IMG/VR virus record: IMGVR_UViG_3300034782_000053
Strand: one strand, 5' to 3'
DNA: 64,000 bases
From: a virus
The notes under the pieces were generated by a model. The model saw only the letters and a list, made by a program, of their open reading frames with translations, was not told where the DNA came from and made no database searches. Position 1 is the stretch's first letter, and every line of letters begins with the position of its first letter. Both the position numbers and the translations under genes were made by a program. Shown here one piece after another: positions 18,281 through 18,296 of the stretch.

Positions 18281-18296
18281 GGTAGCATATGTTACC
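18281..18296. promoter_or_regulatory. palindromic promoter/operator motif GGTAGCATATGTTACC (with TTGACA 18264-18269)
   Basis: Near-perfect palindrome about 55 nt upstream of MVP start; AAGGAGG RBS at about 18337. Confidence 0.5.

Follow-up and report, generated by a model that had tools for sequence, protein, structure and literature searches.

Phages that carry many dispersed copies of a single repressor-binding site are already known, with 18-30 such sites per genome in phiC31, L5 and BPs (PMC4557955, PMC9283540). The BPs gp33 site is a 12-bp palindrome, CGACATATGTCG, with additional copies in small gaps between genes (PMC4557955), and the Cluster A mycobacteriophage L5 has more than 20 copies of a repressor-bound 13-mer in promoters and short intergenic spaces (PMC9283540, PMC4557955). 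A further palindromic site of similar size is found in Epstein-Barr virus oriP, where the EBNA1 sites have a 12-bp core, TAGCATATGCTA, that is bound by a dimer (PMC3218044).

The motif described here recurs through a window of 64,000 nucleotides (the whole stretch of phage DNA) and would add a member to the dispersed repressor-type sites in an otherwise unannotated phage clade. Like the phiC31 CIR and BPs gp33 sites, it is one inverted repeat present in many copies, intergenic and overlapping putative promoters, and a CATATG centre is common to it and the BPs site. The phiC31 and BPs repeats overlap early promoters and are bound by the phage repressor, whereas the binder here is a candidate only; in further contrast, the present palindrome appears locked in register to a -10 element and start site, its half-site sequence differs, and the phage family is unrelated and uncultured. 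With the L5 operators and stoperators it shares the many promoter and intergenic copies of one site, but the L5 sites are asymmetric, bound by a monomer and held in one orientation relative to transcription, while the phage motif is two-fold symmetric and lies at the predicted start site instead of in the elongation path as L5 stoperators do. The EBNA1 core is letter for letter the consensus core of the phage motif; the EBNA1 sites are, however, a replication and maintenance element of a eukaryotic herpesvirus arranged as tandem 30-bp repeats, no sign of an EBNA1/E2-fold protein is seen in the phage, and we treat the match as coincidence or convergence. A literature search for the motif string returned EBNA1 and primer coincidences only. 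Leaderless sigma-70/sigmaA promoters, common in Actinobacteria and Deinococcus, would offer another likeness, with TANNNT 5-8 nt upstream of an ATG at +1, no Shine-Dalgarno sequence and an optional TTGACA, but ordinary leaderless promoters are not known to have a conserved C-A at -9/-8 or a mirror TGYWAC between -10 and +1.

The strong copies of the motif share the consensus RR-GTWRCAYRTGYWAC-YY, with a 14-base core resembling GTAGCATATGCTAC and a palindromic symmetry of GTWRCA-NN-TGYWAC; the focal copy at 18281-18296 reads GGTAGCATATGTTACC, as the sequence-only reading had given it. JGI gene calls were transferred to the window and its flanks of 5.7 kb and 8 kb, that is, to window coordinates -5675..71985. 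A search for GTAGCATATGYTAC with at most two mismatches returned 7 sites (14 matches over both strands) against a shuffle mean of 0.15 matches. In a scan of -5675..71985 with a symmetric 18-bp PWM, 14 sites scored at least 16.5 bits and the runner-up 10.0; twelve of these strong copies lie inside the window, against 0.24 expected from shuffles for a PWM trained on the same sites, and two just beyond its edges. Fifteen copies had been listed at the outset, and twelve of them are the strong PWM sites (Table 1). The remaining three are weak or half sites: 953-970 has the CATATG core only and runs into the start of a tRNA, 12083-12104 reaches 1.9 bits, and 32815-32827 scores 8.5 bits with a single good half-site, so that 32812..32829 counts as a degenerate relative of the motif and not as a full copy. 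Among 41 unique sites of this phage and its relatives, T2 is invariant (41/41), as are T2/A13 and C5-A6/T9-G10, while the centre of the site varies; an L5-type stoperator was rejected on this two-fold symmetry.

Table 1. Motif sites, putative promoters and candidate regulator genes in the window (positions in window coordinates; strand left empty where none is assigned).
Feature	Position	Strand	Remarks
Palindrome ATAACATATGCTAC	4264..4277		Between tRNA-Leu 4177-4251 and FGE-sulfatase-like gene 4325-5374; without in-register -35
Palindrome ATAACACGTGCAAC	14303..14316		Divergent gap 14276-14381; 27 nt from '-' gene start 14275
Palindrome GTTGCATGTGTTAT	14370..14383	+	Motif positions 13-15 are the called ATG of gene 14382-15191; without Shine-Dalgarno; candidate leaderless start
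Palindrome GTAACATGTGTTAT	16989..17002		Precedes by 7 nt the -35 of putative leftward promoter TTGACA-N17-CATGAT (16981-16953)
Palindrome GTTGCATATGTGAT	17069..17082	+	In spacer, two nt after TTGACA 17061-17066; then TTAAAT/TAAATC
Focal-site TTGACA	18264-18269		13 nt from TAGCAT; independent scan pairs TTGACA with TATGTT, spacer 18
Focal palindrome GTAGCATATGTTAC	18282..18295		54 nt upstream of MVP-like gene 18350-21304
Perfect palindrome GTAGCATATGCTAC	29879..29892	-	TTGACA 29914-29909 ('-'), 17-nt spacer to TAGCAT; putative promoter of '-' operon from 29782
Weak/half site TATCAT..GTGTTAC	32812..32829	+	8.5 bits; before gene 32848-33174
Putative promoter TTGACA-N16-TAGCAT with palindrome ATAGCATGTGTTAT (33217-33230)	33196..33230	+	Precedes gene 33242-34012
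Second candidate regulator, 256 aa	33242..34012	+	N-terminal domain novel; C-terminal winged helix
Candidate regulator, 161 aa	34024..34509	+	C-terminal excisionase/MerR-type HTH; weak HTH_17 and TIGR01764 matches
Putative promoter TTGACT (35724-35719)-N17-TAACAT with palindrome 35689-35702	35689..35724	-	
Palindrome GTAGCATATGCAAC	42347..42360	-	ATG of '-' gene 42170-42337 is 9 nt past motif, without Shine-Dalgarno
Palindrome GTAGCATATGCAAC	56932..56945		Divergent gap 56772-56970; 25 nt from + gene 56971
Palindrome GTAACATATGCTAC	60062..60075		Divergent gap 60017-60093; 18 nt from + gene 60094, 45 nt from '-' gene 60016

Across -5675..71985, where the coding fraction is about 87%, no strong site lies in the interior of a CDS; all are intergenic or touch a gene edge, in agreement with the claim that the copies are intergenic and against an equal frequency in coding regions. 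RCAYRTGY cores with GTWR/YWAC flanks are intergenic without exception, and the bare CATATG hexamer occurs 11 times between genes and five times within them, a total of 16 against about 13 estimated from base composition, so that it is neither avoided nor enriched globally. Every strong site also lies within 0-100 nt of a gene start in at least one direction, as had been proposed; the accompanying statement that copies occur on both strands is without meaning for a palindrome. The motif is present in 12 of the 47 intergenic gaps of at least 35 bp and in four of the six divergent gaps, and in none of the six convergent gene junctions checked by eye on the gene map, indicating that it marks a subset of transcription units.

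To place the motif relative to promoter elements and start codons, the 41 unique sites from 12 phage loci were counted in 82 orientations at spacings of 3 to 43. TTGAC stands 16 nt upstream of motif position 2, the T2 of the TAGCAT half, in eight cases and 17 nt upstream of it in 12, with any other spacing occurring once at most. In the 21 sites that can be oriented by a -35, the near half follows the TANNNT rule for a -10 element throughout, reading T-A-[GA]-C-A-T with A3 and T7 each in 21/21. An independent sigma-70 consensus scan of 14001-34000 placed four of its five best matches at or beside motif sites. ATGs of ORFs of at least 80 codons fall at motif position 13 (three sites, including that of window gene 14382), 15 (four) and 16 (four), 11 sites altogether, compared with about one per position elsewhere; window genes 35679 and 42337, together with one gene of relative L012, start at position 24. 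No Shine-Dalgarno sequence is seen by eye before these starts, AGGAGG precedes other window genes, and the N-termini of orthologues align at residue 1 for several motif-linked genes. The fixed -35 register and the pile-up of ATGs suggest that the motif spans -10 to +1 of sigma-70-type promoters giving rise to leaderless or short-leader mRNAs. In the simplest reading, the -10 hexamer would occupy positions 2-7 and the start site positions 13-16, with transcripts either leaderless or carrying leaders of about 10 nt; a promoter role for the motif thus appears well supported.

Individual sites in the window both bear out and complicate this picture. The sequence-only reading had noted TTGACA at variable spacing and start codons very close to the motif, and both hold: the spacers to the TAGCAT half in this phage are 3, 13, 16, 17, 17 and 25 nt, and among the genes that follow, 14382 overlaps the motif, 35679 and 42337 start 9 nt past it, 33242 starts 11 nt and 17095 12 nt past it. 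The ATG of gene 17095-18231, 12 nt past the motif at 17069-17082, and that of gene 34825-35679, 9 nt past its motif, both lack a Shine-Dalgarno sequence, and the latter start is matched by the N-termini of orthologues. A -35 near TTGACA at the expected distance is found at 29879, 33217 and 35689, and at 18282 by way of TATGTT with a spacer of 18, the register of the focal palindrome being about 5 bp off the usual; the other eight window sites are without one. TTGAC itself is in register at only 3/12 window sites (4/14 with the flanks), so that the remainder would be weak sigma-70 promoters unless otherwise helped. The gene-proximal half is TTGCAT, without the key A at -11, at four window sites, and a site beyond the window at 67455 carries TTGACT-N17-TAGCAT on the strand opposite to both neighbouring genes. 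The few in-register -35s, the TTGCAT halves and site 67455 leave room for an activating regulator or a non-standard initiation factor. At 56932, TTGCAT-N17-TATAAT on the '-' strand comes after the palindrome, and site 60062 is flanked at 60081 by a GTGTCCAG/CTGGACAC element; CTGGACAC lies 5-6 nt from the motif at 60081, at 67475 and at L012 7840, although the cases are few.

A -10 element accounts for only one half of the palindrome. On the opposite strand of the same 21 oriented sites, the far half has T2, C5 and A6 in 21/21 but A3 in only 13/21 and T7 in 8/21; it is conserved and yet usually breaks the -10 rule, so that something other than -10 function accounts for its conservation. Even within the near half, the invariant C-A is not a requirement of sigma-70. 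The palindrome also occurs in registers that a -10 element could not use. It lies within the spacer at window site 17069 and at L012 3665, follows a separate TAATCT -10 after 4 nt in L021/L023, and at the focal site, 18282, is shifted by about 5 bp. In four phages it precedes the -35 of a putative TTGACA-N17 promoter by 6-8 nt (window 16989, L013 3512, L011 13020 and L022 2853); the layout of site 16989 is thus repeated in three relatives, which points to an operator outside the core promoter there. Together with the symmetry of the far half, these registers support an operator for a dimeric protein.

The two halves could in principle be held together by base pairing in a hairpin. Standard pairs occupy 82.9% of cells, however, where shuffles give 84.6%, and covariation falls short of its mean in shuffles, so that the halves vary independently, as expected of selection on the recognition of double-stranded DNA by a two-fold symmetric protein and not of a hairpin. 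No Rfam family matches the motif, and a terminator scan of 14001-34000 called no motif copy a terminator. An operator role is probable, and the earlier suggestion of a promoter/operator with leaderless or very short leaders and a dimeric-regulator site draws support from the -35 register, the ATG pile-up and the far-half symmetry.

The motif is shared by a family of related large phages. For the 256-aa product of gene 33242-34012, 75 homologues were found; about 40 are full-length, with identities of 52-76%, and the contigs reach 292 kb. DNA was fetched around four homologues and around 11 further full-length ones from JGI metagenomes. The motif was found in about 10 related metagenomic phages with GC contents of 49-63%, in which the neighbouring protein is 58-69% identical; each of them has several intergenic motif sites, and where gene calls existed (L011-L013) the copies were again intergenic. 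The putative promoter of the 256-aa gene is kept as TTGACAnnnGTTCA-N8/9-TAGCAT-RTGYTAY in nine phages. In the lineage L014/L024, at 56% identity, the motif is absent from the fetched DNA (11-20 kb), and a repeat search there was uninformative.

We consider it fairly probable that the motif fuses a promoter with the operator of a dimeric regulator, one that the phage itself probably encodes. The half that lies left along transcription, T-A-[G/A]-C-A-T, would provide the host RNA polymerase with the -10 hexamer of a sigma-70/sigmaA-type promoter; a consensus TTGACA -35 often stands 16-17 bp upstream. Transcription would begin at motif positions 13-16, and many of the downstream genes would have their ATG at the start site, giving leaderless mRNAs, or follow a leader of some 10 nt that lacks a Shine-Dalgarno sequence. 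The GTWRCA-NN-TGYWAC symmetry would be a separate constraint; most likely a dimeric phage protein uses it as its operator. Judging from the position of the palindrome over -10/+1, the dimer would silence the promoters; at sites where the palindrome immediately precedes a -35, the protein may help or loop instead. The sites would then constitute one regulon or temporal class, comprising at least 12 transcription units in the window. No integrase or lysogeny module is among the Pfam matches listed for the fetched ~78 kb. An extended form of the model, which we hold to be rather improbable, would make the phage dimer more than a repressor: it would recruit or re-programme the host RNA polymerase at sites without a -35 and activate from upstream of the -35, a single 14-mer acting at once as promoter and operator and as the temporal switch of leaderless genes throughout a clade of 100-290 kb phages, with TCCTSAGGA as the site of a partner HTH protein.

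The same observations can be read without any separate regulator, as a pure promoter element whose 14 bases are all recognized by RNA polymerase, through a host sigma factor or an initiation factor modified or encoded by the phage, the symmetry arising from bidirectional firing or from a symmetric factor. The -35 register and the start-codon pile-up do point to initiation at the motif, lone motifs stand between divergent genes at 56932 and 60062 (the latter with starts 18-45 nt away on both sides), and many sites without a -35 are still perfect palindromes. The far half, though, mostly breaks TANNNT and usually provides no second -10, so that a bidirectional -10 was rejected as a general explanation on its A3 and T7 counts; palindromes in the spacer, upstream of the -35 or downstream of a separate -10 could not serve as a -10 at all; and no sigma factor or RNA polymerase gene is among the Pfam matches listed for the fetched ~78 kb. 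This reading seems to us somewhat unlikely. Less likely again is a host binding site taken over by the phages, for example that of a LexA-like or another dimeric repressor acting as a global regulator, with early genes following host physiology. Conservation across phages of differing GC while the centre varies is typical of helix-turn-helix dimer sites, and the Gram-positive SOS box CGAACATATGTTCG resembles the palindrome in its AACATATGTT core. The LexA (Cheo) box is, however, defined by its outer GAAC/GTTC tetranucleotides, and the outer bases here are T-A-[GA]-C instead of G-A-A-C; the box GAAC-N4-GTTC was rejected on these outer positions (T-A/T-G/A-C, with T2 in 41/41). In addition, the motif tracks a phage-encoded HTH protein, and a scan of GTDB for TTGACA-N16/17-TAGCATATGYTAC gave 10 single hits in mixed taxa without clustering, about the number estimated for chance, which offers neither a host regulon nor a clue to the host.

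Two further explanations would detach the palindrome from regulation by a dimer. Dispersed palindromes are bound by partition proteins in phage N15, and the motif might likewise be a centromere-like element of the parS/sopC type, or a replication, packaging or methylation target, for example of the N6/N4 methyltransferase encoded at 35699-36544, that is intergenic by coincidence. A methyltransferase gene adjoins a motif copy in the window, L011 and L012, and the CAYRTG core resembles a type II restriction/modification site, but the fixed -35 and start-codon register is unexpected for sites of this kind, no ParB-type family is among the Pfam matches listed for the called genes, and the CATATG counts given above show no global avoidance or enrichment; we regard such a role as very unlikely. 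Least credible of all is a nucleic-acid hairpin, whether a terminator, an RNA-processing site or a hairpin promoter in single-stranded DNA like those of phage N4. The 14-mer can fold into a 5-bp stem closed by a loop of 4 nt, a T-run comes after several of the copies, and some copies separate genes that run in the same direction. Against this, pairing is no better than in shuffled controls, sites occur in divergent gaps with nothing to terminate and at none of the six convergent junctions, and neither the terminator scan nor Rfam recognizes the motif; an intrinsic terminator or structured RNA was rejected for want of compensatory changes above shuffles and of any call in the scan.

If the motif is a promoter fused with an operator, its binder may be sought in a conserved cassette headed by site 33217, which contains two candidate regulators (Table 1). 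The 161-aa protein of 34024-34509, already put forward by the sequence-only reading, has an orthologue in all 11 motif-bearing loci checked, and none in the fetched L014/L024 DNA (11-20 kb), where the 256-aa protein is kept and the motif is missing. This co-occurrence, with the joint absence from L014/L024, slightly favours the 161-aa protein as the candidate binder, with a single lineage behind the preference. The 256-aa gene always lies behind a putative promoter bearing the motif, and the recognition helix of its product, HQTASARINEL, is nearly invariant. Its AlphaFold model is of moderate overall confidence with a confidently folded N-terminal domain; a Foldseek search of the PDB with this model gave weak winged-helix matches only, the N-terminal domain being unmatched. 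Dam-type DNA adenine methyltransferases (PF02086) encoded on other metagenomic contigs carry a fused domain that shares about 50-58% identity with the winged helix of the 256-aa protein (P0046, P0050, P0051, P0054, P0056, P0064 and P0068).

The clade to which this phage belongs is almost without recognisable genes on contigs of up to ~290 kb, and the promoter-operator code proposed here amounts to its first map of transcription units. Near-identical copies of the window's contig (JGI Ga0373587_0000002, 112,965 bp) are present in six other samples. Relative to the JGI contig the window has a strain-level, in-frame insertion of 6 bp (TAGGCC) at 28079-28084 in gene 27813-28247, with one more single-base difference within 51347-64000. 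No DNA match was found among 50,697 phage records, Pfam matches are almost absent, and a PHROGs search with 10 large proteins gave one weak match. Searches for cultured relatives by protein (the wHTH protein, an exonuclease subunit and the endolysin) found nothing useful, a scan of IMG/VR with the MVP-like protein found no relative, and a scan of GTDB genomes with the wHTH family found none. The motif nevertheless points to a set of genes that may be co-regulated, among them the vault-protein-like gene, an SSB operon and radical-SAM genes, and it offers a defined DNA probe, GGTAGCATATGCTACC, to go with the two candidate regulators. The phage family appears heavily reliant on leaderless translation, which may narrow down the host.

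The gene downstream of the focal site, 18350-21304 (+), encodes 984 aa with matches to MVP_shoulder (E=6e-15), Vault_3 and Vault_4, that is, to the shoulder and repeats of the major vault protein, which is unusual for a phage; the focal motif may drive its transcription. The gene is followed by a strong terminator-like hairpin at 21435-21466 (+), 12 bp and then a T-run, and directly after the hairpin by a promoter-like site, ATGACA-N17-TATCAT (21482-21510, +), whose -35 overlaps a degenerate palindrome of 10 bits. Immediately before the window (L003 1-751, ~-5675..-4925), a gene encodes a Ro60-type vWA domain (PF25045); no genes are called in the adjoining gaps of 678 bp and 1080 bp, in which a Y-RNA-like non-coding RNA could lie. 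The array of 13 tRNA genes at 165-6816 includes six tRNA-Leu and three tRNA-Arg genes; apart from it, at 15925-16001 (-), lies a tRNA of suppressor type with the anticodon TTA, which reads UAA. Gene calls under the standard code remain dense despite this tRNA, so that no recoding is evident.

A second palindrome, TCCT[CG]AGGA, occurs in 15 copies in 77.6 kb, where about 0.6 would be expected from base composition: at 8037, 14318, 17018, 18216, 33159, 34314, 36075, 36265, 38974, 44290 and 52753 in the window, and four times in the flanks. Twelve of the copies lie inside genes, in differing reading frames, and five are 54-68 bp from the centre of a GTAGCAT motif. Among the relatives it is enriched in L012 (5 against 0.15), L011 and L018 and absent from L014, and a second DNA-binding protein or a modification enzyme may recognize it. 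The CCTSAGGA...AATATTGCA element reported at the outset for the regions 14300-14384 and 16989-17080 is present in both. AATATTGCA itself has only two copies, 14335-14343 and 17034-17042, each between the paired motifs of a divergent control region. The second of these is followed by a hairpin, AGGAGTAGTCGACTCCT, at 17042-17058, and on the minus strand AATATTGCA reads TGCAATATT, which resembles an extended -10.
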